A stretch of 64,000 nt of DNA from Minisyncoccota bacterium (GCA_021734905.1 JAIPIB010000002.1:38167-102166), one strand, 5' to 3'; positions 9,239 to 29,900 are shown, numbered from the stretch's first letter. Numbers and translations are program-made. The notes: generated by a model not told the origin, from the sequence alone.

Positions 9239-9724
9239 GTGTACATGGATACAGCTGGAATTGTGACACTTCTCCAAGAGTCAATTTTTATGATTGTTGT
9301 CTTTTCAACTTTTCTTATATATGGCATGGCGAAGGGAAGATACGCACTCATCAATGTACTTTTTGCACTTTACCTCGCACTCCTCATATCAATCAAGTTT
9401 CCATACTATAATCAAATTGTGCAGGGGACAGGGGACAGTAGTGCCGTTGCAAAGATTCTTTTATTTATTAGTTTTTTCCTCGTAGGAATTATTCTATTTA
9501 GACGACACATACCTGGCGACGACTATGAAGCAGCCTTTCATAAAATCGGCAAGAAAGTTCTTCTTGCAGTAATGGCTACTGTGCTTGTTATGATTTTTAG
9601 TTTCCATGCTCTACCGGTAACAGAAATAATCACCCCCGGCACACCAATTCAGGCACTATTTGCCTCACAAGAAAACTTCTTCTGGTGGCTCATCCTCCCA
9701 CTTGCTGTTCTTTTCTTCGTGTAA
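9239..9724 (+). CDS. CvpA-like small integral membrane protein
   Basis: 161 aa with 4 predicted TM helices. Size and topology resemble the CvpA (colicin V production) family. Assignment by resemblance only. Confidence 0.4.
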   Translation: MYMDTAGIVTLLQESIFMIVVFSTFLIYGMAKGRYALINVLFALYLALLISIKFPYYNQIVQGTGDSSAVAKILLFISFFLVGIILFRRHIPGDDYEAAFHKIGKKVLLAVMATVLVMIFSFHALPVTEIITPGTPIQALFASQENFFWWLILPLAVLFFV

Positions 9725-9731
9725 AACCTAT

Positions 9732-10457
9732 ATGCAGATCAAGCCAATTAAAACATCAATTCACTGTATCAGTGATGATTTATTTTCCTTCATAGTTTCA
9801 CATGTTAAAAGACTTGATGATGGGGAAATACTCGTCGTAACATCAAAAATAGTAGCTCTCTCACAAGGAAATATTATTTCGCACGACATGTATACCGAAT
9901 ATCTTAAAAATGTTTCAATGCAGTCTATTCAAACTCCGTGGGCAACGTTCACTCACACAAATGAGGGTTGGTGCATCAATGCGGGCATTGATGAATCGAA
10001 TGCACAAGATAGCCTCATCACACTTCCAAAAAAACCATTTGAATGCGCGCATGCTCTCCTTAAAAAACTCAAGAGACATTATGGTCTAAAAAACCTTGGT
10101 CTTATTATTACAGACACACGAAGTGTACCACTTCGTGTTGGTACTATTGGACGAACCATTGGCTGTGCAGGATTTCATCCCTTCAAAAGTTATATTGGCA
10201 AGAAAGACCTTTTCGGAAGAAAAAGCCGAGTAACGATAAGTAATGTTGCTGATGCCCTTGCGGCAGGTGCCGTTCTTGTCATGGGCGAAGGTAATGAACA
10301 AACACCTCTCGCTGTCATACAAAATGCTCCAATAACCTTCACTCAATCAAAATTAAAAAATGAGGAAACACGTCTTTTCCTTCTCCCCAAAGATGACATC
10401 TTTACATATCTATACAAAAACGCTTCGGTAGAGCCTCACAAACATCCCAAGAAGTAA
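9732..10457 (+). CDS. CofE-like protein (F420-0:gamma-glutamyl ligase family, pfam01996-like)
   Basis: The ATG at 9732 is in frame with track ORF 9660. Motifs ILVVTSKIVALSQGN, GWCINAGIDESN and LIITDTRSVPLRVGTIGRTIGCAG match the CofE/FbiB N-domain signatures (ilvVtSKivSkaeGr, GfvcANAGvDeSN, viisDtfGRpwR.GqvdvAIG). Confidence 0.72.
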   Translation: MQIKPIKTSIHCISDDLFSFIVSHVKRLDDGEILVVTSKIVALSQGNIISHDMYTEYLKNVSMQSIQTPWATFTHTNEGWCINAGIDESNAQDSLITLPKKPFECAHALLKKLKRHYGLKNLGLIITDTRSVPLRVGTIGRTIGCAGFHPFKSYIGKKDLFGRKSRVTISNVADALAAGAVLVMGEGNEQTPLAVIQNAPITFTQSKLKNEETRLFLLPKDDIFTYLYKNASVEPHKHPKK

Positions 10458-10925: not shown

Positions 10926-11936
10926 TTAGACGTCGAGACTCTTAAGTACTTTCGAGTAAAGCTGTTCGACTATCTTCTGCTGGTCAATTCCATTGCGTGA
11001 GTAGTGGTCGAGTCCTGGTGCGGCGTTTATTTCGAGTACCCAATACTGCTTTGACTCTTCAGTGATATCACCACAGATCATGAGGTCAACTCCACAAAGA
11101 CGGAGGCCCATGTCCCGAGTCAGTGACACCGCGAGTGCTCGATACGTAGGATGCACGACACTTGTGACATCGACAGCCTCACCACCGGAAGAGAGATTTG
11201 CATTGTCGAGGAGGAACACCTTCCTGCCCTTCGCGACAACACTCTCGAACGTACAACCATCTCGCGCGAGCTTTTCCTTAATGCGTGGATCATCGAGCAC
11301 AATTTGCGTATCACGCCCCATTCGCGAAAATGAACGTTGCTTCCTGAGGAGAAGCTCGCGTACAGTCCTCTTTCCATCACCTACAACAGAAAGCGGGATA
11401 CGCTCGTACGCTGAAATGACGTCTCCGTCGAGCACCACGATGCGGTAGTCTTTGCCAAAGACAGGGTTCTGCACAAGCACGATGCGATCGTTCTTGAAGA
11501 CTGCGCGTACCGCACGGTAAAACGCACGTTTTGTGTGCACGAGTGCCACATCAGTCCCTTGGCTTCCACTGTTTGGCTTCACAATGACCGGAAGACCAAG
11601 CTTCTGGGCATGAGCATACGCCTCATCAATGCCACGCCGCCTCGCATGAATTGCCTTACACCAGTCATCACGGAAGAACGTCTTGCTTCCCGGAACAACT
11701 GGATAGCCCAGTTTGACCATAAAAAAGTTCGCATAATCCTTGTCTTTCGCAACATCCGATGCGCCTACTGGATTGAGGTCAAGCGTGTTGTACCTGAAAT
11801 ACGTCCGCCTTCCACTCTTAAAGGTGATCTGCCCTACGATACGCCACTCTGGTTCGAGGAGTACCTTCGCCCCAATCTTTGGGGCAATTTTTTGGAGCAT
11901 TTCCCCAAGTACAAGTGATTCGCTTTTCTTTTTCAT
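10926..11936 (-). CDS. stand-alone ATP-grasp ligase homologous to the cyanophycin-synthetase (CphA) ATP-grasp domain / RimK-like
   Basis: LGLPVIVKPNSGSQGTDVALV, YRIVVLDGDVISAYERIPLSVVGDGKRTVRELL, DNANLSSGGEAVDVTSVVHP and VLEINAAPGL align block-for-block with the CphA G-domain (PVVIKPLDGNHGRGITINV, HRVLVVNGKLVAVAERIPAHVTGDG, ATANLSTGGIAIDRTDDIHP, IVEVNAAPG). No Mur-ligase M-domain is present. Confidence 0.75.
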   Translation of the reverse strand: MKKKSESLVLGEMLQKIAPKIGAKVLLEPEWRIVGQITFKSGRRTYFRYNTLDLNPVGASDVAKDKDYANFFMVKLGYPVVPGSKTFFRDDWCKAIHARRRGIDEAYAHAQKLGLPVIVKPNSGSQGTDVALVHTKRAFYRAVRAVFKNDRIVLVQNPVFGKDYRIVVLDGDVISAYERIPLSVVGDGKRTVRELLLRKQRSFSRMGRDTQIVLDDPRIKEKLARDGCTFESVVAKGRKVFLLDNANLSSGGEAVDVTSVVHPTYRALAVSLTRDMGLRLCGVDLMICGDITEESKQYWVLEINAAPGLDHYSRNGIDQQKIVEQLYSKVLKSLDV

Positions 11937-12082: not shown

Positions 12083-12801
12083 ATGGCAAAAAACAACTTC
12101 AAAAGACTTAGTTATCTACCAGACAAAATCTGGTGCTCTTGAACTGCGTGGGGATTTTGAGAAGGAAACAATTTGGGCCAGCCTCGATCAAATCGCAGGA
12201 GTTTTTGGTCGGAATAAGTCAGTAATTTCAAGACACCTTAAAAACATTTTTTTGGAGGGCAAATTAGATCGCAACTCAGTTGTTGCAAAAAATGCAACAA
12301 CTGCCAGTGATGGGAAAACTTATCAAGGAGTTTGCTTCAACGTGGGTTTCCCTTGATGTATATGATAAGGAAGAGTTTGAACTGAAAGGAATCACAAAGA
12401 AGAAAGTATCACTCGTAAGCAGTGACCTTTTGTCTGCAATCGGTGATTTGAGAAAGGAATTAGTGAAGAAGAAGGAAGCAACTGAGATGTTTGCATCTGA
12501 ACGTAGGGAAGGGAATATTGAAGGTATTGTCGGAAATGTCATGCAGTCATTCGGAGGTAAGGCAATGTATCCCACAGTTGAAGAGAAGGCCGCTCACCTG
12601 CTCTACTTCATGGTAAAGAACCACCCATTCACCGATGGCAACAAGCGTTCAGGAGCATTTGCATTCATCTGGTTTCTCAGGAAGACCGGTGCGAAGTGAA
12701 GTAGACAAATCAATCCTCCTGCTCTCACACTCCTCATTGCAGAAAGCGACCCATCAAAGAAAGATCAAATGGTCGCCCTCGTAACCCAAATGCTACGGTA
12801 G
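12083..12801 (+). pseudogene. RhuM-family (Fic/Doc-like) gene, disrupted by two frameshifts and an in-frame TGA
   Basis: The C-terminal frame (ASERREGNIEGIVGNVMQSFGGKAMYPTVEEKAAHLLYFMVKNHPFTDGNKRSGAFAFIWFL) matches the RhuM/Doc motif HPFxDGNKR. The N-terminal RhuM block (LVIYQTKSGALELRGDFEKETIWASLDQIAGVFGRNKSVISRHLKNIF) is in another frame. The ATG at 12083 is out of frame across an A6 run (12088-12093). TGA at 12697-12699 interrupts the frame, and homology continues (ALTLLIAESDPSKKDQMVALVTQMLR) to a stop at 12801. Confidence 0.6.
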
Positions 12802-12865: not shown

Positions 12866-13483
12866 ATGAAAACTGAATTTAATAAGAAAATACTACTTAA
12901 GTACGTTCCCATATACGATGCAAATTTGTCTCTTGCATCAGGTGTCACGCTATCAGACGCTGAAATTTCTGAAGGATATGAATACTGCACACTCTTTGAA
13001 AAAGAGTGGAATTCTGTTGCTCAAGTTCTTGAATATTACACCTCATTAGGATTCAATCTCCCTAATCAGACTCCTGCGTATCTAACTCATCCGAGGGGAA
13101 CCTTTACTCCATTTTCTGACCCCCTTACTCTTCATATAAAGGAGGACAAGGATGATGTTTTGGCGACACTGATTCATGAGTATTGCCATGTACTTTTTCT
13201 ATATCACAAGAACGATATTTTGTCAGACAAAATCTGGAACGCGGTACAAAAAGCATTCCCAACCGAAGATTTTGGTACTCAAGATCACATCACGATAAAC
13301 AAGCTCGCCGAAGGCGGTTTGTATTATTTATGGGGAAGGGAGAAGACAGATGCGATTCTCTCGAAGGAGAGAGCCATGCCTGGTCTCGAGCGAGCGTGGA
13401 AAATACTAGATTCAGCTGAATTAAGGAATACCAACCCTGTTGAAGCAATACTTGAGCTTTGCGCCCAACAGTCTGGAAAATAA
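12866..13483 (+). CDS. hypothetical HExxH-motif protein (putative SprT-like metallohydrolase)
   Basis: 205 aa, no TM. Single HEYCH motif (LIHEYCHVLF). Family not firmly recognised. Confidence 0.45.
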   Translation: MKTEFNKKILLKYVPIYDANLSLASGVTLSDAEISEGYEYCTLFEKEWNSVAQVLEYYTSLGFNLPNQTPAYLTHPRGTFTPFSDPLTLHIKEDKDDVLATLIHEYCHVLFLYHKNDILSDKIWNAVQKAFPTEDFGTQDHITINKLAEGGLYYLWGREKTDAILSKERAMPGLERAWKILDSAELRNTNPVEAILELCAQQSGK

Positions 13484-13503
13484 TTCAGCAACAATCTGAA
13501 TAC

Positions 13504-14079
13504 ATGAAAACTTTATACATTACATACACGCATGGTGATGAGCATCCACCATATGAGATACCAAACGCGCTTGTTGCAAATCCTTTAGCAAGGGAACGAA
13601 ATTTGCGATACATTGAAACTGACCTGAACAGAAGTTTTGGTGTAAAGACACCGGTCTCATATGAAGAAAAAAGAGCTGTTGAATTGGAGGAGATGCTCAA
13701 CGACTATGATCTTGTTGTCGATATTCACAGAACAACAGCACAAACAAAATTTTGTGGCATTGTCACAAAATCTGATGATGCAGTGTATGTACTACCATAT
13801 GGTGTAAGTGCTGTAGTTCTCGTTGAGAATATTCAAAATTCACTTATTTCAAGAGCAAAGCATGGTATAGCATTAGAGTACCCATATGCATATTCGTTGC
13901 ATACTGGTAGCGTTCCACTGTATCGAGTTAAAAAGTTTGTTACTGCAGAACCACACTGGATCGATTTTGAAGAAACCGAACAGGGAATACCATACTTAGT
14001 AAACGAAAAGGCATACCATGGAAAATGTTTTTTACTTGAAAAAATCCATCCAAACATCAACTCAAATTTAAGGGAATAA
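13504..14079 (+). CDS. AstE/AspA (succinylglutamate desuccinylase/aspartoacylase) family zinc hydrolase-like protein
   Basis: The in-frame ATG at 13504 (MKTLYITYTHGDEH) gives the N-terminal metal-binding HG(D/N)E motif. DLNRSFG matches the DLNR motif of the AstE/AspA-M14 fold. Confidence 0.5.
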   Translation: MKTLYITYTHGDEHPPYEIPNALVANPLARERNLRYIETDLNRSFGVKTPVSYEEKRAVELEEMLNDYDLVVDIHRTTAQTKFCGIVTKSDDAVYVLPYGVSAVVLVENIQNSLISRAKHGIALEYPYAYSLHTGSVPLYRVKKFVTAEPHWIDFEETEQGIPYLVNEKAYHGKCFLLEKIHPNINSNLRE

Positions 14080-14172: not shown

Positions 14173-14229
14173 TATGACTTGGTTTTTCTTCACGCTCATT
14201 GCTCCGTTTTGTTTAAAATTGTATTTGTA
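14173..14229 (+). pseudogene. remnant of a DMT/EamA transporter N-terminus
   Basis: Translation MTWFFFTLIAPFCLKLYL* is nearly identical to the N-terminus of the DMT paralog at 16352 (MSWFFFTLIGPFLYAL), then reaches a stop. Confidence 0.45.
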
Positions 14230-14356
14230 AAGAGAAAATGGAACATTCACGATGTTACCAAACAGCACTTTAAGTAGGGCTTTTCTTCATATTGCAATGA
14301 ACTAAAATATATGGTATAATATATTTAGTCAACTTGATCCTTGAAAGGAGTCTGAA

Positions 14357-15280
14357 ATGAACCAAAGTTGGTTTCTGATGGCACTGGTGCCACCGTTACT
14401 GTACGCAGTAACGAATCATATCGACAGAAACCTACTTGGAATTTATTTCAAGGAAGGTGGCGTCGGTACCCTCGTAATAGTCTCATCACTTCTGTCGGTC
14501 ATCCCAATTCCAATTTTCTTATGGGTAGATTCGTCAGTACTGAGTGTTGGCATAGAAAATATGCCAGCATTAGCATTTGCCGGCCTGCTTAATGTAGGTC
14601 TCATCTGGTTTTACCTGAAAGCAATGCAGGATGAGGAGCCAACAGTCGTGATCATCTTCTATTCACTTGTACCAGTACTGGGGCTTGTGTTTGGATATTT
14701 TATTCTCGATGAAACGATTAGCCATATGCAACTCATAGCAATGGCAATAATCATCGTCGGAACAGCACTTGTCTCCTTCGAAATCGGTGAAGCAAATAAC
14801 TTGACGCTGAGAGTCAGTACCCTTGTGAATATGGTTATTGCTTGCACCTGTTGGGCGCTTGAGATGGTGGTGCTCAAAAAAGTTGCACTTGAAGAAAATA
14901 TGTGGAGATCATTATTCTGGGAACATTCCATGATGGTGGTTGTGGGAATCCTCATCTTCATTTTTGTGCCAAAGTACCGTTATCATTTCATGATTGCACT
15001 ACGAAGTAATTCAAAGGCGATCCTATCCCTCAACGCTACCAATGAGGTTCTCTACATCATCGGAAACGTTGTCGGAGCATTTGCATCAATGATGGCGCCA
15101 GTTGCCCTTGTACTCTTGGCACAGCCATTCCAATCGATTTTTGTGTTTGGGATTGCTGTATTTCTAACCAGCTATTTTCCCCGCTTTTCCGCAGAAAAGA
15201 CGGAATTCAAGCACATGCTACAAAAGTTGCTTGCAATCTGTGTGACTGGTATGGGGACATACTTACTCCTAACGTCATAG
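14357..15280 (+). CDS. DMT-superfamily (EamA-like) permease, paralog A
   Basis: 307 aa, 10 TM helices, duplicated EamA architecture. About 50% identical to the ORF at 16352. SD aaaggag before the ATG. Promoter-like TATAAT at about 14312. Confidence 0.8.
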   Translation: MNQSWFLMALVPPLLYAVTNHIDRNLLGIYFKEGGVGTLVIVSSLLSVIPIPIFLWVDSSVLSVGIENMPALAFAGLLNVGLIWFYLKAMQDEEPTVVIIFYSLVPVLGLVFGYFILDETISHMQLIAMAIIIVGTALVSFEIGEANNLTLRVSTLVNMVIACTCWALEMVVLKKVALEENMWRSLFWEHSMMVVVGILIFIFVPKYRYHFMIALRSNSKAILSLNATNEVLYIIGNVVGAFASMMAPVALVLLAQPFQSIFVFGIAVFLTSYFPRFSAEKTEFKHMLQKLLAICVTGMGTYLLLTS

Positions 15281-15310
15281 TGCGGAGTCGGATAGCTCAT
15301 CTTAAACTCA

Positions 15311-15348
15311 AATCGCGTAGCCATAAGCTACGCGATTTTCTTTTTTTT
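15311..15348 (+). terminator. rho-independent terminator after DMT paralog A
   Basis: aatcgcgtagc cataa gctacgcgatt stem followed by ttcttttttttt. Confidence 0.7.
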
Positions 15349-15436
15349 AGTCCTTTGAGTTATCCACTGTCTCTTTAAATGCTATTGTCAAACAGCATTT
15401 TGTATTGTACAATAATTAAATTCTAATAATATTTCT

Positions 15437-16345
15437 GTGATTCCTAAATTTCCAAAATTTAAAAGCATATCTGTTGAGGACAGTAATGAAATACGTCGCT
15501 TTTCAAACCGCTTTCAACCGTATTCTTTTTTTAACTTCTCTAGTCTATGGGCATGGAACACTGAGAAAAAGTGTAAAATATCAAAGCTTAATGGTAATTT
15601 GGTGATGTTTTACACTGATTTTATAACATCGAAACCTTTCGTTACTTTTTTAGGTACGAATAAGGCTAAAGAGACGGCGGCGGAGCTCATCGAGTTTATA
15701 AAGAAGAGCAAAACTGGAGCAGCACTTCGATTCATAACAGAGGAAACAAAAACTTGTTTATTACATTCAGATTTTCATATTAAAGAAGACAGAGATAATT
15801 TTGACTATATTTTTTCAACATCAAAACTCGCTCTTTCAGAAGGTCCTGATTTTAAACAAAAACGTCAACACGCAAACAGATTTTTACGTGAAAATCCAGA
15901 CGCTCGTCTAGTACACGAAGATATGCATGATTTAGCTGTACGAAAGAAGCTTACGGGTGTAATTCGTCAATGGGAGAAAAACAAAATAGATACTAAAAAA
16001 CAATGCAATCTCAAACATGAGCAAGCGGCAATAAATCGTCTACTAAAGAATGATACCAATCGTAAACTCATTCTTTCATGTGTATATGTAGATGAAACGA
16101 TGGTTGGTTTTAGTATCGATGAGATACTTTTAAGTGGTTATGCTATGGCACACTTCATCAAAGCAGATTACTCATACAGGGGTGTTAGCGAGTATATTAA
16201 TGAAAAAGTCGCTGCTCATTTAATTACCCACGGTATTGAACTATGGAATTGGCAGCAAGATTTAAATTTTGACGGTCTTCGTAAACTTAAAATGAGTTAC
16301 CGTCCTGTGCACTTCTTAAAGACATACACCATCTCAAAAAAATAA
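15437..16345 (+). CDS. DUF2156 / MprF C-terminal-domain-like protein (putative aminoacyl-tRNA-dependent aminoacyltransferase, GNAT-pair fold)
   Basis: 302 aa, soluble. Motifs FFNFSSLWAWN, RDNFDYIF...G.DFKQKRQHANRF and C-terminal NFDGLRKLKMSYRPVHF correspond to conserved blocks of the lysyl-PG synthase domain and stand-alone DUF2156 proteins (NLYaWR, FDYIY...KKR...NRF, GLRRFKEKFKP). Recalled from memory, not searched. Confidence 0.62.
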   Translation: MIPKFPKFKSISVEDSNEIRRFSNRFQPYSFFNFSSLWAWNTEKKCKISKLNGNLVMFYTDFITSKPFVTFLGTNKAKETAAELIEFIKKSKTGAALRFITEETKTCLLHSDFHIKEDRDNFDYIFSTSKLALSEGPDFKQKRQHANRFLRENPDARLVHEDMHDLAVRKKLTGVIRQWEKNKIDTKKQCNLKHEQAAINRLLKNDTNRKLILSCVYVDETMVGFSIDEILLSGYAMAHFIKADYSYRGVSEYINEKVAAHLITHGIELWNWQQDLNFDGLRKLKMSYRPVHFLKTYTISKK

Positions 16346-16351
16346 TATTCT

Positions 16352-17272
16352 ATGAGTTGGTTCTTTTTCACACTTATCGGCCCATTTCTGTATGCGCTCA
16401 CTAACCATATAGATAAATTATTACTTGAAAAATATTTCAAGAAGAGTGGAGTAGGTACGCTTATGCTATTTTCGACACTTGTGTCGATATGCGTATTGCC
16501 ATTAATCTATTATTTCGATCAAACTGTATTTGGCGTTGGTATTAAAAATATTGCAGTATTGGCAACTGTTGCGGCTTTGAATGTTCTTGTTCTATATTTT
16601 TACCTTCTTGCACTTAAGGATGAGGAAGCTTCTATTGTGATTGTATTTTACCAACTTGTACCTGTTTTTGCATACATACTAGGATATTTCATTCTCAGTG
16701 AAACGCTAACGCAAATACAACTTATCGCAATGGCAATTGTTATTTTTGGTACAACAATTATTTCTTTTGAGATAGACGTCGAAAACAACTTCAAGCTAAG
16801 AAAAAATACTATTTTTCTTATGACCGCAGCATCTTTTTGTTGGGCATTGGGATCAGTAATTTTTAAGGCCGTTGCGCTTGAGGAAAATGTTATGCGGTCT
16901 CTTTTCTGGGAACATTTTGTTTTGGCAATAATCGGAGTTGGTATCTTTTTCTTTGCCAAGTCTTCAAGGAAACATTTCATTAAAGAAATTGAAATTAATT
17001 CCTCTTCAATACTTTCATTAAACTTCCTTAATGAATCGCTATATATACTTGGTAATTCTGTTTTTGCATACGCATTTCTTCTCGCTCCGATATCACTTAT
17101 TCTTCTAACAAATTCATTTCAGCCGATCTTCGTTTTCATTATTGGTATAATCCTAACAATTTTCTTTCCAAAAATTTCAGCTGAAAAGATTCAAGCAAAG
17201 CACCTTTGGCAAAAAGTTCTTGCCATTGCAATAACTGGAGCGGGAACATACCTCCTGTTGATTTCGTCGTAG
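16352..17272 (+). CDS. DMT-superfamily (EamA-like) permease, paralog B
   Basis: 306 aa, 10 TM helices. Co-linear with and clearly homologous to the ORF at 14357. Confidence 0.8.
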   Translation: MSWFFFTLIGPFLYALTNHIDKLLLEKYFKKSGVGTLMLFSTLVSICVLPLIYYFDQTVFGVGIKNIAVLATVAALNVLVLYFYLLALKDEEASIVIVFYQLVPVFAYILGYFILSETLTQIQLIAMAIVIFGTTIISFEIDVENNFKLRKNTIFLMTAASFCWALGSVIFKAVALEENVMRSLFWEHFVLAIIGVGIFFFAKSSRKHFIKEIEINSSSILSLNFLNESLYILGNSVFAYAFLLAPISLILLTNSFQPIFVFIIGIILTIFFPKISAEKIQAKHLWQKVLAIAITGAGTYLLLISS

Positions 17273-17364: not shown

Positions 17365-17523
17365 ATGGATATGAAGTCAAGGACATTGTTTCTTTTTATG
17401 TTTGTTCTGTGTATTTTCTCTATTGCTGCTTTATATTACAAAGCTATCATTCAACAAGATTTTGACATTGTGGAGGTGTACGAAGATTCTGAGGAAAATG
17501 ACACTGAAATTGTCTCAGAATAA
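17365..17523 (+). CDS. small secreted/membrane peptide (52 aa): hydrophobic N-terminus, acidic C-terminus
   Basis: Hand translation gives MDMKSRTLFLFMFVLCIFSIAALYYKAIIQQDFDIVEVYEDSEENDTEIVSE. Not in the track. TATAAT about 10 nt upstream. Speculative. Confidence 0.3.
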   Translation: MDMKSRTLFLFMFVLCIFSIAALYYKAIIQQDFDIVEVYEDSEENDTEIVSE

Positions 17524-17534
17524 ATTTCTAATCA

Positions 17535-18077
17535 ATGAAAAAAATATCACCAAAAGCAATTAATGAGGTCCGAATCGAAATGAAACCCTCTAAAATGTTA
17601 AAGGGTGAAGTTGGCGTCTTTGCGACACGCAATCTTAAAAAGAATTCTATCGTGGCGGAAGCAAGTCAATTCTTATGTGAAAGGTTTATTCCGTGGGAAA
17701 AATATAAAGAGCTTGATCCAATTACTCAAAGGAAGGTTATGGATTATTGTTCTGGAGATGTTAAAGGTTTTTACGCTCCTCCAGATTTAAACTACTTATC
17801 TATAGCATGGCATTTAAACCACAGTTGTGAACCGAATGTTGGATTTGATGCGGGCTATAATTTTGTAGCAATGAGGAATATTAAGAAGGGAGAAGAATTG
17901 TTTTGGGATTATTGCTATGACGAATCAAATCCTGATTTCAAGATGAAATGTTCATGTGGTTCAAAAAAATGCAGAGAAGTAATTACTGGTGAAGACTGGA
18001 GAAAACTCATAAAAAATAAAAAGGCTTGGCAGTATCTATCAACTGATATTAAAAAGTTAGCAAAAAATGTTAAATAA
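17535..18077 (+). CDS. SET-domain protein (putative protein lysine methyltransferase)
   Basis: NHSCEPN and ELFWDY SET motifs, followed by post-SET cysteines (CSCGSKKCR). Confidence 0.75.
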   Translation: MKKISPKAINEVRIEMKPSKMLKGEVGVFATRNLKKNSIVAEASQFLCERFIPWEKYKELDPITQRKVMDYCSGDVKGFYAPPDLNYLSIAWHLNHSCEPNVGFDAGYNFVAMRNIKKGEELFWDYCYDESNPDFKMKCSCGSKKCREVITGEDWRKLIKNKKAWQYLSTDIKKLAKNVK

Positions 18078-18087
18078 TTCTTAGCTT

Positions 18088-19800
18088 ATGGATACCTCAA
18101 ATTTAATCATATGCACTGACGCAAGTCCTGATTTTGTGGGTATTTTTGACTTAAGCATTGCTCCTGCCATGCTTTACTATTCCTATATTCCAATTGTTTT
18201 TATATCACTACTGCTAGGTGTGTTTGTTTTGATACAAAATCGATTTTCATTAATAAGCAAAATCCTTTTTCTAATTACACTCCTTTTCTCAATATTTATT
18301 GCGAATGAACTTCTGCAATGGGTAGCGGTTCCTGCTGGAATTATGTACTTTGCATGGTCTCTTTCTCTATTACTACATTTCTTTATTGTTTTACTGACAT
18401 TTTACTTTGTTTATTTGTTCATAAATAAAAATGACTTTTCCTTTTCTCAAAAAGTTTTATTTATGCTAGTTAGTCTTCCAGCAATACTATTACTCCCAAC
18501 AAATTTGAATGTTCCAGCCTTTGACGTTGACTGGTGTGGTGCAATAACTGGACCACTTTGGTATTACCTCTACGCATTTGAAATTGCCACAGCAACGTTC
18601 TTATTGTCATGGGGCATAAAGTTGATCAGAAAATACTACCGCCTTAAAGACAGAGCCTTACTGCCATCAATCTATCTTCTTTTTGGTGCATCGTTCTTCT
18701 TGTTTGTTTTCTTTGGTTCATACTTTGTTAGTGAAATAGCAGACCTTTATGAAATTAATCTATATGAATTTAATTTCATCGGCCCATCTGGAATGCTTAT
18801 CTTTATTGGAGTGTTCTCTTTCATGATTGTAAAATTTAAAACATTTAATATTAAGCTCCTCGGGGCACAAGCGCTTGTGGTTGCACTGTGGTTCCTTGTG
18901 GATTCACTGCTCTTTGTGGCGCAGTCTACAACAACGCGCACTGTTGCTGGCGTTACTCTTCTTATCACAACAATCGCTGGTTACTTCCTTGTGCGAAGCG
19001 TTAAGAAAGAAGTGCAACAAAGGGAAGAACTTGAGATCCTTACCGACCAACTCGCAAAGGCGAACGCACGCCTGAAGCTCTTAGATAAGATGAAATCAGA
19101 ATTTGTCTCTATTGCATCGCACCAACTTCGAAGTCCACTTACATCTATTCGTGGATACGCTTCTATGCTTGCGGAAGGTTCTTACGGCAGACTTCCGGTA
19201 AAAGCGCAGGAGGCTGCTGCAAATATTGCTGACTCGAGTAAATACATGGCAATGTCTATTGAGGATTATCTTAATGTGTCTCGTATTGAAGCCGGGAACA
19301 TGAAGTATGAAATGAGCGACTTTAATCTCAAGGATGCTGCTGAAAAGATTGTCGACGAGATGCGACCGGTTGCTATGAAGAAGGGCCTCGTGATGGTTTT
19401 TCGTTCTGACTGTAACGGAAGTAATCAGATTAATGCAGATATTGGTAAAACACGCCAAGTCATTATGAATCTCCTCGACAACTCAATGAAATATACTCCA
19501 AAGGGAACCATTACAGTTGTTGCTCATGATGATATTAAGAAAAAAAAGATGTACGTTACTATTAAGGATACCGGCGTCGGTATGAGTAAAGAAACACAAG
19601 AAGAAGTCTTTGATAAGTTTGTCCGCGCAAAGAACGCCAACAACATCAATGTCACAGGAACAGGTCTCGGCCTCTTTGTTGCAAAGAAAATGGTTACTGA
19701 GATGAAGGGAAGAGTATGGGCCGAGTCAGAAGGAGAGGGGACTGGGTCTACATTCCACATAGAATTTTCACTACTGCCTGGGAAACCCTCAGTGAGATAA
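18088..19800 (+). CDS. sensor histidine kinase with multi-TM (about 7 TM) N-terminal domain
   Basis: N-terminal 250 aa with multiple TM helices, a coiled coil, then H-box SHQLRSPLTSIRGYASML, N-box DNSMKYT and G-boxes DTGVGM / GTGLGL. No response regulator nearby. Confidence 0.85.
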   Translation: MDTSNLIICTDASPDFVGIFDLSIAPAMLYYSYIPIVFISLLLGVFVLIQNRFSLISKILFLITLLFSIFIANELLQWVAVPAGIMYFAWSLSLLLHFFIVLLTFYFVYLFINKNDFSFSQKVLFMLVSLPAILLLPTNLNVPAFDVDWCGAITGPLWYYLYAFEIATATFLLSWGIKLIRKYYRLKDRALLPSIYLLFGASFFLFVFFGSYFVSEIADLYEINLYEFNFIGPSGMLIFIGVFSFMIVKFKTFNIKLLGAQALVVALWFLVDSLLFVAQSTTTRTVAGVTLLITTIAGYFLVRSVKKEVQQREELEILTDQLAKANARLKLLDKMKSEFVSIASHQLRSPLTSIRGYASMLAEGSYGRLPVKAQEAAANIADSSKYMAMSIEDYLNVSRIEAGNMKYEMSDFNLKDAAEKIVDEMRPVAMKKGLVMVFRSDCNGSNQINADIGKTRQVIMNLLDNSMKYTPKGTITVVAHDDIKKKKMYVTIKDTGVGMSKETQEEVFDKFVRAKNANNINVTGTGLGLFVAKKMVTEMKGRVWAESEGEGTGSTFHIEFSLLPGKPSVR

Positions 19801-19941: not shown

Positions 19942-20676
19942 GTGAAAACCCTAATAGTTCTATTTGTAACGACAATGTCTCAAATGGCGTTTGCATACGA
20001 TTCGCCATGGGAGAAGACTCTTGCCTATCCACCAACACTGACCGGTGAAGAACTTGCCCTGGCAGAAACCGAACTCTTGCCAGAAAATGTCGAGAAAACT
20101 AAAATTGCTCTTGCGAGTGACTATGGTCAAAAATTCGATGACACATTGAACGAGGCTTCGCCTTATGTCGAGATCGTCATGAAGACACGCCGTGGCAAGG
20201 ATCCGGCAAATAGCTTGAATGACGTCAGTGCCTACGTAGAATTCCCATTGACGGCAACTCTATCGCTCTGGGTAACTGGAACAGATGACGAGACCTTCAA
20301 GGGAACCTACGTCGGCCTAGCCAGAAAATTTGGCAATTGGCAGGTTGCACTTGGTGGAGGAAGCGTCGTATATGGCGATACTCGTCACAATGTCATCAAT
20401 CCGTGGATCTTGTATTCTACAGATAGTTACGAGGCGTATTTACACGCTGAGTACTACGGAAAGGAGTCGGACAATCGGTGGTGGTATAAAGCCTTTGCTG
20501 ACAAGAAGTTTGGCAACACTAGCTTTGGCCTCTACGGCGAAGCCGGCGTTGGGATAGGTCCTCGGCTCTCATGGCAGGTTACCAAAAACTTGAAATTTTG
20601 GGTTATGGTGCCAGTCGCACTTCAGCCGAATGAAGGGAAAATCAAATTCATGGCGGCAGCTGTCGTCATGTTCTAG
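19942..20676 (+). CDS. secreted protein with OMP-like C-terminal beta-signal (GTG start)
   Basis: Strong SD gggaggaaggag before GTG. Signal peptide MKTLIVLFVTTMSQMAFA. Aromatic-rich. C-terminus ...KFMAAAVVMF ends in Phe with alternating hydrophobics. GC higher than surroundings. Confidence 0.5.
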   Translation: MKTLIVLFVTTMSQMAFAYDSPWEKTLAYPPTLTGEELALAETELLPENVEKTKIALASDYGQKFDDTLNEASPYVEIVMKTRRGKDPANSLNDVSAYVEFPLTATLSLWVTGTDDETFKGTYVGLARKFGNWQVALGGGSVVYGDTRHNVINPWILYSTDSYEAYLHAEYYGKESDNRWWYKAFADKKFGNTSFGLYGEAGVGIGPRLSWQVTKNLKFWVMVPVALQPNEGKIKFMAAAVVMF

Positions 20677-20779: not shown

Positions 20780-21718
20780 ATGAAAAAACGACTTTTTACA
20801 GGACTACAACCATCAGGAGCGCTCCATATTGGAAACTACTTTGGGGCACTGAAGCCTTTTAAAGATATAGCGGGGGACTACGATAGTTTTCTCATGATTG
20901 CAGACTACCATTCACTTACCACAATGCGAGACGCAACGACACTGAGAAGCAACATCATTGATGTAGTCAAAGACTATATAGCTATTGGAGTTGAACCAGA
21001 TGAAGTCACTATATTTAAACAATCAGACGTACCAGAACATACAGAACTTGCATGGATATTTGAATGCTTAGTGACCGTACCTTTTCTTTCTCAGGCTCAT
21101 GCGTACAAAGACAAGGTTGCAAAAGGATTGGAAGCAAACGCAGGACTCTTCAATTATCCAATGCTTATGGCTGCAGATATCCTTCTCTATGATGCAGATG
21201 TTGTGCCAGTTGGAGAGGACCAAAGACAGCACGTTGAATACGCAAGGGAAGCTGCAACAAAATTCAATAATGCATATGGGGAGACATTTGTCCCACCTCA
21301 AGAAATGGTCTTGAAAGGAGTCGGCATCGTAGCAGGAACTGATGGTCAGAAGATGAGTAAGAGCTACAAAAACACCATTCCACTTTTTGGAACGAAAGAC
21401 GAAATTTCTAGAGCAGTCATGAGTGTCGTAACTGATTCAAGTGGAGATCGTCCAGAAAACGTCTATTCGATTCATCGTCTGTTTAGAACAGAATCTGAAC
21501 TTGAAGGACTTTATGCAGAGCATGCTGGGAAATATAAAGATCTTAAAGAAGCACTTATAGAAGATATTGAAACTCTCGTTGCACCAATGCGTGAGAAACG
21601 ATCAGAAATTACCGATGATGATGTTCGTACAATTCTAAAAAACGGAAGTGAGAAAGCTCAAGCTCAAGCTCAAAAAAAGATTACAGAAATTCGAGACAGG
21701 ATAGGAGTTTCTATATAA
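20780..21718 (+). CDS. trpS: tryptophanyl-tRNA synthetase
   Basis: Class I HIGH region (GLQPSGALHIGNYFGAL) and KMSKS (GQKMSKSYKN). 312 aa. Confidence 0.9.
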   Translation: MKKRLFTGLQPSGALHIGNYFGALKPFKDIAGDYDSFLMIADYHSLTTMRDATTLRSNIIDVVKDYIAIGVEPDEVTIFKQSDVPEHTELAWIFECLVTVPFLSQAHAYKDKVAKGLEANAGLFNYPMLMAADILLYDADVVPVGEDQRQHVEYAREAATKFNNAYGETFVPPQEMVLKGVGIVAGTDGQKMSKSYKNTIPLFGTKDEISRAVMSVVTDSSGDRPENVYSIHRLFRTESELEGLYAEHAGKYKDLKEALIEDIETLVAPMREKRSEITDDDVRTILKNGSEKAQAQAQKKITEIRDRIGVSI

Positions 21719-21760: not shown

Positions 21761-22297
21761 ATGTCAAGAAAATATCAAATTGGAGTCATGGGCTCTGCTC
21801 AAGATCTTAACTATTCTAAGGAGATTGAACAATTAGCAGAAGATATCGGACTCGAAATTGCTAAAAAAGGTCACATCGTTGTATATGGAGCTGAAAAAGA
21901 TTACGATTCTCTTTCGACAGCTGCAGCACGCGGAGCAAAGAAGGTAAATGGTCTTACTGTGGGAGTTACTTATGGAAAAGGTAAAGATATATGGGACAAA
22001 GAAGGGAACACCGACATTATTATCAGTACTGGCATTGAACGTGGTGGAGGACGTGAATTTGTCCTTGTAAATTCCTGTGATGCAATTATTGCAATATCAG
22101 GAGGGTCTGGCACTTTAACTGAGCTAGCTATTGCATATCAAGCAGATATTCCAATGGTTGTTATGAGGGGAACTGGTGGTTGGTCTGACAAACTAGCTGA
22201 TACTTTTTTTGATGCGCGTGAAAGACGTAAAGTGATTGGCGCAGCAAATGCACAGCAAGCGGTTCAAAATGCTTTGGATCAGATTTCCGGACAGTAA
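21761..22297 (+). CDS. LOG/TIGR00725-like Rossmann-fold protein
   Basis: GVMGSAQ...IAISGGSGTLTELAIAY pattern (GGxGTxxE) of the LOG/DprA-like SLOG families. Confidence 0.55.
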   Translation: MSRKYQIGVMGSAQDLNYSKEIEQLAEDIGLEIAKKGHIVVYGAEKDYDSLSTAAARGAKKVNGLTVGVTYGKGKDIWDKEGNTDIIISTGIERGGGREFVLVNSCDAIIAISGGSGTLTELAIAYQADIPMVVMRGTGGWSDKLADTFFDARERRKVIGAANAQQAVQNALDQISGQ

Positions 22298-22298
22298 A

Positions 22299-22322
22299 AA
22301 CAGCCCACCGGAGTAGGCTGTT
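22299..22322. terminator. bidirectional hairpin between convergent genes
   Basis: aacagcc caccggagta ggctgtt inverted repeat between the 21761 gene (+) and the GNAT gene (-). Confidence 0.45.
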
Positions 22323-22329
22323 AAAAGGG

Positions 22330-22923
22330 TTATACCATGAGAAATCCCTCATGTTCTTTTCTGAAGGTTTCCCAAAGTAGTTCCCAATCATTTCTATAAA
22401 CAGACAACCATATTTGATCCCAGTACTTACCCTGAGCATAATGGTGGTCTTTTAGTCTACCTTCTTCCTTATAGCCACACTTGAGGCTATACGCATGGCT
22501 TCGCTCGTTAAAAGCAATGACATTCGAGTAGACTTTTCGGAGATTCAAGACATTGAAAGCGAATTCAAGCAACAACATCTTTGCTTCGCTTCCATATCCT
22601 TTATCCCAACAGTCTTTTTCTCCAATGAGAGCACCTGTTGTAGCGTGACCTTGCCGATGATCAATGCCATGCAGACCCATAGTACCAATTGGTTTATCAT
22701 CAACAACAATTGCGACCACCATATCGCGTGGCTTGCGTTTGTGCATTGATGTAAACCATTCATTTTCATCAGCCTCCATCATTGGAAGATGGACTTTGAG
22801 ATATTTACTAACTTCTGGATCATTTATCCATTTCAAGAGCAGAGGAACATCCTGTTCAAGTACAGGACGTAATGTTACTCTCTTGCTCCTCCGGAAAATA
22901 ACTTCCTGTTTTACTTCAGACAT
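22330..22923 (-). CDS. GNAT family N-acetyltransferase (RimJ/RimL-like)
   Basis: 197 aa. Acetyl-CoA-binding core pattern (VVAIVVDDKPIGTMGLHGI...GALIGEKDCWDKGYGSEA). Typical RimL-type size. Confidence 0.7.
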   Translation of the reverse strand: MSEVKQEVIFRRSKRVTLRPVLEQDVPLLLKWINDPEVSKYLKVHLPMMEADENEWFTSMHKRKPRDMVVAIVVDDKPIGTMGLHGIDHRQGHATTGALIGEKDCWDKGYGSEAKMLLLEFAFNVLNLRKVYSNVIAFNERSHAYSLKCGYKEEGRLKDHHYAQGKYWDQIWLSVYRNDWELLWETFRKEHEGFLMV

Positions 22924-26929: not shown

Positions 26930-29900
26930 ATGTATCTACGGCGACAGCATTTTTTAGTATGTGCGCTTCTGAGTTGCATTCTTGTCTTTGCTCCGGTCTC
27001 TCACACACAGGCATTCTCACTCGATGACTCATCTCTCTGGAGAGGTACTGCGACACTCTTTGCCGGTGTGAGTTCTTTCACCTGTGGCAGTTTCTTCTCG
27101 TACATACTCAATCCACTTGGTCTCTGTGCAACGCCCAACTTTGACGGGGAACCACTCGCACAGAACGATACCCTCCATGACGCAATGGAGGGAATTGTCC
27201 CCGATGAAACACCAACGACCATACCCATTGCACCAACGTACATCACCAATACATACAACACCAATCCAACCACTATCGTACGAGACACAGTGAGAGAGGT
27301 GGTCTACCATACCGAGAGTAATACACCACCTGATCTCTCTCAGTTTGTGACCCGTGACTTCGTGAATAAACAGTCCAATAGAATTTATGATGTTCAGGGA
27401 GATGCACAGAGTACCAATGCTGCATCATTCACCACCAATCTCCTCACGGTATCAGGGGACAGCACCGTATCAGGACTCCTTACTGTTGACGGTGCACTCT
27501 CATCACTCGCATACACCTCTGCACCATACCTCACTGCCACAGATGCTGCTGCCACCTCTACCTTTGCGGGTAGTGTGACGGTTGATGGGCGTGTGGGGAT
27601 TGGGACGACGAGTCCAAAACAAAAATTACATATTGTTGGTAACGCATATACAGAAACACTCATTGAATCTTTGACAGCTGATTCTGCACTGGCACTAAAA
27701 TATGCATCTGGAAACACTGGTGGCATGTTCTTTTACTCAGGTGCCACTGCTGCTGGGTCACTATATGGAGGCAATGATAACAGTCTCAACTTACAAACAT
27801 ACACAGCAAGCCCATTAAAGTTTCTTACAAGCGGAACTGAACGCATGCGTATTTCTGATACTGGAAATGTTGGGATAGGGATAGCTTCACCAAATACTAG
27901 ATTCCAAATTGTAAATGGGTCAGTTTCCGGAAATGACGCTTTTGCCCAGTTCGGAAGTACAGTTGGAGGAACAGGTGAACTAGGCTTGCAGTTTGGACGA
28001 AGTGGAGCTACGTCTGGTTCATTAATAATTCAAGGAGTAAAAGAAGGTACTGGAGCAAATAATTTGTCCCTTCAACCAAGTGGAGGAAACATCGGTATCG
28101 GCACCACCTCTCCAACCTCTAAACTTACCGTCAATGGTGACATACGCATAGAGACAGGCTCAGGAGGACAACTCATCTTTGCAGACGGAAGCACTATGTC
28201 CTCAGCAGCACTTGGTTCAGCAGCAGCACTCTCAAACATCACAGACGCCATCATCACCGGAGACTCAGACACCAACAGTTCAGGTAATATACTATTCAAA
28301 ACCGGCTCCAATGACCGTATGACCATACTAAACAATGGAAATGTGGGAATTGGGACAGTGGGTCCGGGAACACCTCTCCAAGTAAATCACGGAGGAGGAG
28401 CTGATGGTACGAGGCAAAATGTCCTGACAGTTTCTACTGCCGGTTCTGTTACCTATGGTGGGTATATCGGCAATCGTGCTGTATCTGCAAATACGCATCA
28501 AGGCATGTTTATTGAGGGAGGGGGATCTTTAACCCTTGGAGCAAAGAGCTATAACATTGATTTTATAACGGGTGCAGGCATTACTGCTAGTGGCGATACA
28601 AATTTGAGAATGCGAATAGATTCTTCAGGCAACGTCGGCATCGGCACGACAGAGCCGGGCCTGCGTCTGGAAACAAAAGCTGCGGCCGCTGGACTACCAG
28701 CCACTTCTGGCACATCGCAAACTGGAATTATGCGCTTGAGTCAGGGGATTGGCACTGGTGTGGTTGATTTTGGTTTTGGCGGAACGGCTGGATATGGTTG
28801 GATACAGGCTGTTGATAGTGGTAATTTAGCAACCAACTATGGATTATTGTTGAATCCAAACGGCGGCAACGTCGGTATCGGGACGACGAATCCAACACAG
28901 GAACTGACAGTATATGGTGCAGGAAACAATTCTACTGAAATTAATATAATAGAGCCGGATGCAGTCTCCGAATCAATAATTAATTTTGGCGATTCCATGT
29001 CAGGGACGGCACGATATGAAGGTAGAATCTCTTATAACCATACGACTAATGCTTTAAATCTCAGCACAAATCATTTGGTCAGCACGCCCGAACTGACATT
29101 AAAGAATGGAAACGTCGGTATTGGCGTCGCGTCACCGCAGGCAATGCTTGATATTGTTGGTAACGATACCATTCTTAAAGTACGCGACACAAGAACAACA
29201 GGAGGTAACGCGACTTTACAGCTACAGGCAGAAGGTCAGCTTGCCCAGCTTAAATTCTATTACGGAGACAGATTCGCTATCGATAATGGTGGAGGAACGG
29301 AATGGCTTACAATAAAGCAGAACGGAAACATTGGCATCGGCACCACTTCACCACAGGCAAAACTAAGCGTAAAGGGAAGTGGCACCGGTTCAGGCTTCCT
29401 CGCACAGTTCACCGACAGCGCAGATAGTCCCAAGTTCACGATTTTGGATAATGGAAATGTTGGGATTGGTACGGCGATCCCAGGGTCAAAATTAACTGTG
29501 CAAGGAGGAAGTTCGGGAGCTGTTGATTTTGCTGTTATGCATTCTACTGGGAATGCGGGATTGTATTTCTCAACTCTTGCAAGCGGTTCTGGTAGATTAG
29601 TTTTTGCTAATTCCGCAAGTACAATAGTTAACCAAATCGGTATTTCAGATAATGAATACACATACTTCAATAATGGTAACGTAGGTATAGGAACATCGAC
29701 GCCAAGCGCAAAGTTGGATGTGGTCGAAGGAATTATTAGAATTTCGGGCACAAGTGATGCATTCGACCAAACTTTATCTATTCAGAATAATGTGAACAAG
29801 GTTCTTAAGCTTACTGTGGGTTCTAACGGTGGAGGGACGGCATGGTACACACAGCCAAACACAGGAACTCTCGGCGTGGATACTGGGATGGATTTACGTT

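Follow-up and report, generated by a model that had tools for sequence, protein, structure and literature searches.

What does a soluble enzyme of the DUF2156 superfamily do between two membrane permeases? The question is raised by a locus in a 64,000-nucleotide stretch of DNA from a Minisyncoccota bacterium (GCA_021734905.1 JAIPIB010000002.1:38167-102166; the whole stretch is called the window below, and coordinates count from its first letter). Three genes on the plus strand are at issue: DMT1 (14357-15280), which encodes a 307-residue permease of the EamA/drug-metabolite transporter (DMT) family; the gene of a 302-residue DUF2156 protein (15437-16345, GTG start), referred to here as the enzyme; and DMT2 (16352-17272), which encodes a 306-residue EamA/DMT permease. 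An initial annotation had read this arrangement as a split MprF, in which the enzyme makes an aminoacyl lipid and the DMT permeases replace the flippase domain of MprF. All of its open reading frames (ORFs) are present, and the partnership of enzyme and permease proves to be conserved across the Candidate Phyla Radiation (CPR), but the enzyme lies outside the MprF branch and the lipid-flippase role looks unlikely. We tentatively favour, at a rough probability of 0.4, tRNA-dependent aminoacylation of a small, decarboxylase-derived amine coupled to DMT transport. The small-amine acceptor specifically is much less certain than the enzyme-permease module on which this reading is built.

The enzyme belongs to a free-standing branch of DUF2156

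PF09924 (LPG_synthase_C) is the sole Pfam domain of the enzyme and matches it over profile positions 11-297 of 298 (E = 1.2e-28; 100.5 bits against a cut-off of 27.5). The four motifs by which an MprF-type synthase had been recognised (FSSLWAWN, RDNFDYIF, KQKRQHANRF and GLRKLKMSYRP) are all found in the translation, and the identical protein is named 'phosphatidylglycerol lysyltransferase domain-containing protein' in public databases. The description of the synthase-like domain as soluble, with no fused flippase, also stands. The protein has no hydrophobic segment (the top 19-residue Kyte-Doolittle mean is 1.18), and no amphipathic or hydrophobic anchor is evident in it, which speaks against action on a membrane lipid. 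Its AlphaFold2 model (mean pLDDT 90.8) has the tandem-GNAT fold. The best Foldseek matches in the PDB include the MprF C-terminal domains and FemX, as had been anticipated, but 2HQY stands before both, all with a probability of 1.00. The template-modelling (TM) scores are 0.83 for 2HQY at 26% identity, 0.63-0.65 for the MprF C-terminal domains at 11-13% identity, and ~0.6 for FemX and for the aminoacyl-tRNA-dependent peptide synthases Sbb17/Sba18.

Sequence searches lead to 2HQY as well. The single protein finds it by phmmer at 1.6e-15, and a CPR family profile built on 20 CPR homologs finds it at 5.5e-35 over residues 8-303; searched against the PDB, this profile finds only 2HQY and no MprF chain at E ≤ 1. 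Profile searches place the enzyme in neither the Fem nor the L/F-transferase families. Judged by sequence, the enzyme is a true member of the DUF2156 superfamily that belongs to a free-standing, 2HQY-like branch, and it is not the synthase domain of MprF minus its flippase. 2HQY itself is a 'conserved hypothetical protein' of Bacteroides thetaiotaomicron, which resembles the enzyme in length, in architecture and in having no membrane domain. As a hypothetical protein, this closest match gives no clue to the substrate. The CPR proteins differ from it by an added, invariant N-terminal IPxFPxF motif and by a gene context specific to the CPR. An exhaustive search of 1.84 billion representatives returned 675 clusters (50% identity) at E ≤ 1e-30 for the enzyme family, and among the best 150 representatives nearly all have ~300 residues and are thus free-standing, with a few partial proteins of 203-260 residues or longer ones of up to 389.

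In the model, the two GNAT halves are joined by a basic helix at residues 137-152 (DFKQKRQHANRFLREN), in which K140, R143 and F149 are invariant among 20 family members. The linking helix of this dGNAT-alpha(+) architecture has been assigned to binding of the tRNA acceptor stem (PMC6103681, PMC13219428). Family membership and the conserved basic helix together lead us to predict that the enzyme is an aminoacyl-tRNA-dependent transferase. The aminoacyl-phosphatidylglycerol synthases, including MprF (4V34, 4V36, 5VRV, 7DUW), share PF09924, the tandem-GNAT fold and the basic linking helix with it. MprF, however, carries a fused N-terminal flippase domain and the enzyme none; the partner here is a DMT carrier, and the gene context of the relatives contains decarboxylases. 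Fungal ErgS and ErdS are free-standing or aspartyl-tRNA synthetase-fused DUF2156 proteins that aminoacylate ergosterol (PMC8913301, PMC7334510, PMC13219428). As far as published descriptions allow the comparison, they have the same dGNAT-alpha(+) architecture and illustrate that a DUF2156 protein without a flippase can be an active tRNA-dependent transferase; unlike the enzyme, they come from eukaryotes, aminoacylate a sterol and lack a transporter partner.

Enzyme and permease stay together across the CPR

The two permeases were described as 10-helix EamA/DMT paralogs of about 50% identity, which agrees with our results. Both match PF00892 (DMT1 with E = 4.2e-14), at 53.4 and 52.4 bits and in the first EamA repeat only, the second being missed by Pfam, and they are 53% identical over 304 residues without a gap. 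The DMT2 model (pLDDT 85) has ten long helices and the DMT fold.

The conservation of the pair was followed in two surveys. The forward survey, of GTDB species representatives, gave 40 non-redundant CPR-type and 39 non-CPR DUF2156 loci, the latter from Clostridium, spirochaetes, Aminicenantes and others, with no Bacteroides thetaiotaomicron locus among them. A DMT homolog lies within 3 kb of DUF2156 in 21 of the 40 CPR-type loci and in none of the 39 others. The reverse survey was seeded by the permease and comprised 80 metagenome loci (73 non-redundant) with a DMT2-type permease at 60-74% identity; many of these loci are truncated by contig ends. DUF2156 is present in 32 of the 52 permease loci that extend at least 1 kb to both sides, almost always directly adjacent. 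Where both genes occur, in 64 non-redundant loci, they are at most 150 nt apart in 52, and in 49 of these 52 they share a strand. Both gene orders are seen among the 64, as are divergent and convergent arrangements, and conservation is higher in the permease, with a mean identity of 60% to the window copy against 42% for the enzyme. The expectation that DUF2156 would be found beside EamA/DMT genes in other genomes is thus borne out.

A 73%-identical relative keeps the order DMT-DUF2156-DMT while its downstream flank is entirely different. In ~50%-identical relatives from other CPR classes, the enzyme gene lies on either side of the permease gene (DUF2156-DMT or DMT-DUF2156), and a small protein and a multi-transmembrane kinase are encoded next. 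The adjacency covers lineages whose DUF2156 proteins are only 30-50% identical. The pattern far exceeds what inheritance of gene order alone could be expected to produce, and we consider it likely that enzyme and permease are functionally coupled in one conserved module. The opposite view would be that the genes have no functional link, that their order was inherited in streamlined CPR genomes and that the permeases are ordinary metabolite carriers. DnaK/DnaJ genes do lie upstream both in the window and in locus L009, with tryptophanyl-tRNA synthetase (TrpRS) and class II aminoacyl-tRNA synthetase genes downstream. But the adjacency outlasts changes of order, strand and whole flanks, spans strongly diverged DUF2156 proteins and is absent from the non-CPR homologs, so that mere inheritance of gene order is hardly credible as the full explanation.

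No DUF2156::EamA fusion was found among the 10 proteins scored with a concatenated DUF2156+DMT2 query, which is weak evidence. In our literature search, no paper connected DUF2156 with EamA/DMT carriers or described the cassette in CPR bacteria; the sole CPR mention found presumes lysyl-phosphatidylglycerol synthesis on the strength of the annotation (PMC6031116).

Unrelated enzymes take the position beside the permease, often with a decarboxylase

The pair is part of a CPR-wide cassette with the order pyruvoyl decarboxylase, enzyme, DMT, s13x, SET protein and multi-transmembrane histidine kinase, in which the decarboxylase and the SET gene are variable. Its stable core consists of the 10-helix DMT permease, the small membrane-anchored protein s13x and the kinase: among the 73 permease-seeded loci, s13x is found in 54 and the kinase in 53, compared with 39 for DUF2156. 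The enzyme slot is filled by DUF2156 in these 39 loci, by a family that we call x280 in 19 and by a GARS-like ATP-grasp ligase in 8. In 66 of the 73 loci (90%), one of these three unrelated enzymes is encoded no more than 3 kb from the permease, typically 6-90 nt away and on the same strand. In the 20 of 52 informative loci (~40%) that have no DUF2156, unrelated enzymes stand in its place and the permease is still 60-74% identical.

x280 is a conserved family of ~270-290 residues encoded directly upstream of DMT in place of DUF2156 (L092 2819-3661, L124 2773-3579, L120 1418-2227 and ~20 further loci; alignment A3). Its invariant motifs include ATPN.E..RF, DFN..GK, TLWGE.L..FH and G.LFE, and it has no match in Pfam or the PDB. 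A relationship to DUF2156 or GNAT proteins by divergence was considered and rejected (hhalign probability 0.2%). The GARS-like ligase sometimes occurs with a small GNAT-like protein. In L106 (2878-4954, PvlArgDC) and L172 (3295-4993, AdoMet_dc), a decarboxylase gene is followed by the GARS-like ATP-grasp gene and then by the DMT-s13x-kinase core. Since purine synthesis is generally held to be missing from CPR genomes, the ligase of these two loci probably serves another role. GARS-type ligases join an amino-acid carboxylate to an amine, and the characterised member of the family, PurD, acts on soluble substrates. In net terms this ligation equals an aminoacyl transfer to an amine, and DUF2156 could form such a bond from aminoacyl-tRNA instead. 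Displacement between an ATP-grasp ligase and a tRNA-dependent transferase has a comparable case in the synthesis of peptidoglycan branches.

Decarboxylase genes accompany all three slot enzymes. An AdoMet_dc-type gene lies directly upstream of DUF2156 in many loci; x280 is accompanied by one too (L092, L101), as is the ATP-grasp ligase (L172). In L091 the AdoMet_dc-type decarboxylase is fused to DUF2156 in a single 466-residue ORF (P0128, 8001-9401) with an intact ESHISIHTFP processing motif, which is followed by an EamA permease, a homolog of a 244-residue secreted protein of the window and a SET protein. A second protein, P0013 (366 residues), retains a remnant of the N-terminal decarboxylase domain of P0128. 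PvlArgDC, which is unrelated to AdoMet_dc and by definition an arginine decarboxylase family, occurs with the ATP-grasp ligase in L106 and directly upstream of DUF2156 in L104, L108, L156, L031 and others. Of the 40 GTDB CPR-type loci, 19 have an AdoMet_dc-type or PvlArgDC gene at a distance of at most 3 kb, and decarboxylase-linked members are found in nearly all clades of the DUF2156 tree, including the sisters of the clade that holds the window. For CPR homologs of AdoMetDC, experiments have demonstrated ornithine or arginine decarboxylase activity (PMC10407285). The presence of two unrelated decarboxylase families at one position, together with one fusion, is the strongest functional clue of this analysis; it implies that the decarboxylation product, agmatine or putrescine, would enter the pathway of DUF2156.

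These results bear directly on the split-MprF proposal, in which DUF2156 would aminoacylate an inner-leaflet lipid (phosphatidylglycerol, diacylglycerol, a glycolipid or a scavenged lysolipid), one or both DMT permeases, instead of the MprF flippase, would bring the cationic lipid to the outer side, and the kinase would sense envelope or charge stress. Membership in PF09924, the likeness of the fold to MprF synthase domains and the tight, conserved adjacency to a membrane protein are all in keeping with it. The small DMT-superfamily proteins ArnE/ArnF can flip lipid-linked cargo, and the kinase GraS/ApsS controls mprF in known systems. ErgS provides the precedent of a free-standing DUF2156 enzyme that acts on a lipid (PMC8913301). 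Against this stand the 11-13% identity to MprF domains and a family profile that reaches no MprF chain, so that the claimed kinship to the MprF branch falls. The same highly conserved permease pairs with the unrelated x280 and with a GARS-like ligase, and it is tied more tightly to s13x and the kinase than to DUF2156, which is not easily squared with a permease dedicated to flipping an aminoacyl lipid. Pyruvoyl decarboxylases of soluble substrates adjoin DUF2156, and in one case are fused to it; this context, although indirect, points to a small amine and not to phosphatidylglycerol as the acceptor. Moreover, the fold relatives of DMT2 with solved structures, namely SLC35B1, the choline importer LicB, TPT, CST (the CMP-sialic acid transporter) and YddG, are all carriers of small solutes, with TM scores of 0.66-0.72 to SLC35B1, LicB and TPT. 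Because the permease is constant while the enzyme is swapped, the decarboxylases use soluble substrates and the relatives of DMT2 carry small solutes, we regard a split MprF as unlikely.

The permeases stay below the NCBIfam equivalog cut-offs of characterised DMT subfamilies: they score 33.8 and 42.9 bits for TIGR00950 (2A78 carboxylate/amino acid/amine transporters; cut-off 230) and 17.8 bits for YedA (cut-off 270). Foldseek matches of DMT2 to AdiC were dismissed as noise.

A possible route to an aminoacylated amine

The reading that we favour, aminoacylation of a small amine coupled to transport, can be put together as follows. The soluble DUF2156 enzyme would take an amino acid from aminoacyl-tRNA, as family membership and the conserved basic helix between its GNAT halves suggest. 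It would pass this amino acid to a small cationic amine of the agmatine or putrescine type; the adjacent decarboxylases of the relatives, one of them fused, and the parallel with the ATP-grasp ligase point in this direction. In the present genome the amine would need to come from import or from synthesis elsewhere. DMT2 is probably transcribed together with the enzyme gene and would then move the substrate or the product across the membrane, in either direction. The peptide, the SET protein and the kinase encoded in the same apparent transcription unit may serve sensing or regulation, a role suggested by synteny.

Several points weigh against this scheme. The window contains no decarboxylase, x280 or GARS-like gene in its 64 kb, and the whole DUF2156 subclade to which it belongs has no decarboxylase nearby; the amine is therefore carried over from relatives of 35-45% identity. 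The 2HQY-like branch has no member of known substrate, and the use of aminoacyl-tRNA is itself a prediction. To our knowledge, every bacterial DUF2156 enzyme that has been characterised and has a membrane partner acts on a lipid. The modelled fold of the permease gives no indication of which way transport goes, and a lipid-linked substrate would be compatible with it. CPR genomes keep long stretches of gene order, such as DnaK/DnaJ upstream and TrpRS downstream, and inheritance rather than function may account for some of the synteny. The predicted promoters and terminators, finally, are consensus matches whose regional total is no higher than in shuffled sequence.

Known systems supply precedents for parts of the scheme. 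VlmA of valanimycin biosynthesis catalyses tRNA-dependent aminoacyl transfer to a hydroxylamine. Sbb17 and Sba18 (9WQX, 9WQY), whose acceptor is streptothrisamine, transfer an aminoacyl group from tRNA to a soluble amine, which is the chemistry proposed here; they match the enzyme in fold (TM ~0.6) at only 10-11% identity. All three come from antibiotic clusters of actinomycetes. The cassettes of the relatives, with a pyruvoyl decarboxylase of the arginine/ornithine type beside a membrane carrier, recall the decarboxylase-antiporter system AdiA/AdiC and the pyruvoyl arginine and ornithine decarboxylases of polyamine gene clusters (PMC10407285). The cassette differs in that its carrier is a DMT protein and not an APC antiporter, in that an enzyme of acyl or aminoacyl transfer lies between decarboxylase and carrier, and in having no genes for spermidine or homospermidine synthase; the window has no decarboxylase.

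Extended to the whole cassette, the idea would be a CPR-wide pathway, not described before, in which an amino acid is joined to an agmatine-type amine from a pyruvoyl decarboxylase by means of tRNA, a GARS-like ATP-grasp ligase or x280, the cationic conjugate is exported by the DMT permease, and s13x and the kinase provide sensing. In this full form the proposal is speculative and rather improbable. If true, episymbiotic bacteria would be making a surface or signalling molecule of their own, and the 2HQY-like branch of DUF2156 would gain its first assigned function. What is new here is a conserved set of partners for a large branch (the 675 clusters above) of a known superfamily that has no assigned function, together with a testable substrate hypothesis, and not a demonstrated new mechanism. 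Only a few aminoacyl transferases use tRNA outside translation, and every one of them has led into new biology: antimicrobial-peptide resistance with MprF, the cell wall with the Fem enzymes and fungal sterols with ErdS. In CPR bacteria, which have a minimal metabolism, depend on hosts and have had almost no gene functions tested, the cassette may represent an envelope or signalling system. The survey also exposes x280 as an uncharacterised 280-residue family in the slot of DUF2156.

The s13x protein, the SET protein and the kinase

Downstream of DMT2, the initial annotation had listed a small peptide, a SET-domain protein and a sensor kinase, and all three are as described, all on the plus strand. 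The peptide (17365-17523) has 52 residues and a single transmembrane segment. s13x proteins have ~130-140 residues, with one N-terminal transmembrane helix followed by a Cys-rich ectodomain of ~100 residues that has ~10 conserved Cys and the consensus YEGECDP...CFVGCEDDECTEEYYYSK; they have no Pfam match. Their gene is almost always located between DMT and the multi-transmembrane kinase (64 sequences, e.g. L009 6932-7360 and L008 6049-6441). Against a hidden Markov model built from these 64 proteins, the 52-residue peptide is the best of 627 ORFs of the window (E = 1.4e-4). It lies at the syntenic position, aligns to the transmembrane anchor and the juxtamembrane motif of s13x, lacks the Cys-rich ectodomain and is 83% identical in the sister locus L002. 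By these criteria of alignment and position, the peptide is a truncated s13x.

The kinase (18088-19800) has 570 residues, HisKA and HATPase_c domains and a multi-transmembrane N-terminus of ~300 residues. Most related loci encode full-length homologs of ~550-570 residues with a multi-transmembrane N-terminus downstream of DMT. A single-query tblastn, a search of low sensitivity, detected no receiver domain either in the window or in related loci.

The constancy of these partners suggests another reading, in which DMT, s13x and the kinase form a transport-linked sensing unit with the permease as co-sensor, and DUF2156, like x280 or the ATP-grasp ligase, is a mere neighbour, co-regulated or often adjacent, that shares no substrate with it. 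The cassette indeed varies least in its DMT-s13x-kinase part (of the 73 loci, 54 have s13x and 53 the kinase), and DUF2156 is absent from 20 of the 52 loci with sufficient sequence on both sides. Distant CPR lineages, in addition, pair DUF2156 with a different multi-transmembrane protein and a kinase, and have no DMT. There, DUF2156 is followed by a multi-transmembrane protein of ~275 residues (275-385 residues; no Pfam family), often by a protein of ~100 residues, and then by the kinase (L051 7952-8779, L027 7931-9088 and 14 further loci). This reading leaves unexplained why 90% of the permease loci hold one of three enzymes right beside the permease, a closeness that argues for a shared pathway, and why the enzyme-permease pair survives inversions and changes of order; we therefore hold a pure sensing unit to be quite improbable. 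The possibility that the multi-transmembrane protein, MP275, is the detached sensor domain of a kinase of the window type was rejected (hhalign probability 1%).

Kinase genes also adjoin DUF2156 in 10 of the 39 non-CPR loci, from Clostridium; these genomes are close kin, hence the adjacency is not counted as evidence. In L069 (3169-10951, Clostridium tagluense), a free-standing DUF2156 protein is encoded between a hybrid histidine kinase of 1131 residues with 7TMR-DISM and a GNAT protein (Acetyltransf_3) plus an amino-acid permease, and large kinases like this one are encoded upstream of DUF2156 in several related Clostridium loci.

The SET-domain methyltransferase (180 residues, 17535-18077; PF00856, E = 2.3e-12) brings in a further alternative. 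The enzyme might act on a macromolecule and aminoacylate a peptidoglycan precursor, like Fem proteins, or the N-terminus or a lysine of a protein, like L/F- and arginyl-transferases, with the SET protein or a PrmA-like methyltransferase modifying the same target. SET and PrmA families methylate protein amines. The likeness of the fold to FemX and to aminoacyl-tRNA-dependent peptide synthases (TM ~0.6) fits this idea, as does the SET gene in the apparent operon; in L020 a PrmA-like methyltransferase gene occupies the SET position after DUF2156. SET genes are found at the same place in L015, L017, L026, L091, L092, L097, L134, L145 and L153. They are, however, confined to a minority of cassettes (9 of 73 permease-seeded and 2 of 40 GTDB CPR-type loci), the enzyme does not belong to the Fem or L/F-transferase families by sequence, and the alternative gives no role to the permease or to the decarboxylases. 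A macromolecular target is thus very unlikely.

Apparent gain and decay of extra permeases

The two permeases do not have equal standing in the module. DMT2 is 58-74% identical to the single permease that adjoins DUF2156 in other CPR lineages, and by this comparison it is the ortholog of that permease and the conserved partner of the enzyme. DMT1, by contrast, is only 50-58% identical to permeases of other lineages and falls outside the DMT2 ortholog clade in a distance tree. The earlier view that both permeases belong to the system thus stands for DMT2, and DMT1 appears as an older relation with transcription signals of its own. A recent tandem duplication, which had been proposed, was discarded: DMT1 is as far from DMT2 (52%) as from the permeases of other CPR classes, and in the tree it is an old, diverged paralog rather than a recent duplicate. 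DMT1 is probably functional, because it retains all 31 invariant columns of the family alignment (A2).

The third DMT copy that had been reported upstream is real, with its position shifted by one base (14174-14230 instead of 14173-14229). This relic of the 5' end of a DMT gene is a 19-codon ORF on the plus strand, MTWFFFTLIAPFCLKLYL followed by a stop codon, and its first twelve residues are identical to the N-terminus of DMT2 (MSWFFFTLIGPF) at 10 of 12 positions. Across all six frames of the 64-kb window, W[FL]F[FLM].L[IV].P is matched only twice, in the relic and in DMT2, and the 277-nt intergenic region that contains the relic matches DMT orthologs by tblastn with E ~4e-6. A weaker continuation of the relic to ~14285, after a deletion of 11 codons, is possible from the alignment.

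In the sister lineage, the DMT copy upstream of the enzyme is only 49% identical to DMT1, and tandem DMT pairs are also found in L111 and L112. The upstream paralog is represented by ORFs of 266 and 46 residues in L002 (6993-7878) and by an intact ORF of 294 residues in L003 (6994-7878). These two contigs are otherwise near-identical and come from different metagenomes; the split, a frameshift, is either ongoing decay or an assembly error. The divergence of DMT1, the split sister copy and the relic at 14174 together suggest, as read from these sequences, that extra permease copies were gained and lost repeatedly ahead of the enzyme gene rather than in a single recent event.

Some DMT2-type permeases of ~55% identity have a C-terminal extension of ~200 residues that looks beta-rich (P0125, L092 3663-5174; also P0123, P0126 and P0127). 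This extension of the 503-residue permeases was considered as a homolog of the 244-residue secreted protein of the window and set aside, as there is no significant similarity.

Transcription signals and neighbouring genes

A consensus scan of the plus strand placed a promoter-like site before DMT1 (14292-14320, TTGCAA-17-TATAAT with an extended TG) and another before the DUF2156 gene (15385-15413, TTGTCA-17-TACAAT), both as pattern matches. A terminator-like hairpin with a 12-bp stem, six G-C pairs and a T-run lies between DMT1 and the enzyme gene (15310-15348). DMT2 starts 6 nt past the stop codon of the enzyme, and from the enzyme through DMT2, the 52-residue peptide and the SET gene to the kinase gene the gaps are 6-92 nt, with no terminator-like site between them in the scan. 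Because of this placement of promoter-like and terminator-like sites, DMT1 looks like a monocistronic gene with its own promoter and terminator, and the run from DUF2156 to the kinase looks like a single operon.

The 244-residue secreted protein (19942-20676, plus strand) is encoded beyond the kinase with promoter-like and terminator-like sites of its own. It is beta-rich, has no Pfam family and is 30% identical (E = 1e-27) to the 208-residue protein encoded between DMT and SET in L091. TrpRS follows (20780-21718, plus strand; PF00579). Copies of 62-72% identity are found after the kinase in L009, L017, L018, L024, L026, L032 and L079, and the TrpRS of the window is probably a housekeeping enzyme.

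The window as a whole has a G+C content of ~40% and encodes ribosomal proteins, DnaK/DnaJ and many aminoacyl-tRNA synthetases, as fits a metagenome-assembled genome of the CPR (Patescibacteria); in its 64 kb ARAGORN found no tRNA or tmRNA gene, and an Rfam scan found no family at the gathering score. Just upstream of the locus, several amide-bond enzymes are encoded: a homolog of CofE-like F420-0:gamma-glutamyl ligase (9660-10457), a stand-alone ATP-grasp protein of 336 residues that resembles the ligase domain of cyanophycin synthetase (10926-11936, minus strand) and a short AstE/AspA-like deacylase (13459-14079), which is 95% conserved beside the cassette in L002. A 139-residue Fic-domain ORF is found there as well (12280-12699). 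Just past TrpRS (21761-22923) are the genes of a SLOG/LOG-like protein (LDcluster4, 178 residues) and, convergent to it, of a GNAT protein (Acetyltransf_3, 197 residues); an Acetyltransf_3 gene also occurs near the cassette in L002 and adjoins DUF2156 in Clostridium. Further downstream, an ORF of 1819 residues with an N-terminal signal-like segment (26930-32389) presumably encodes one of the large surface proteins that CPR genomes commonly have.

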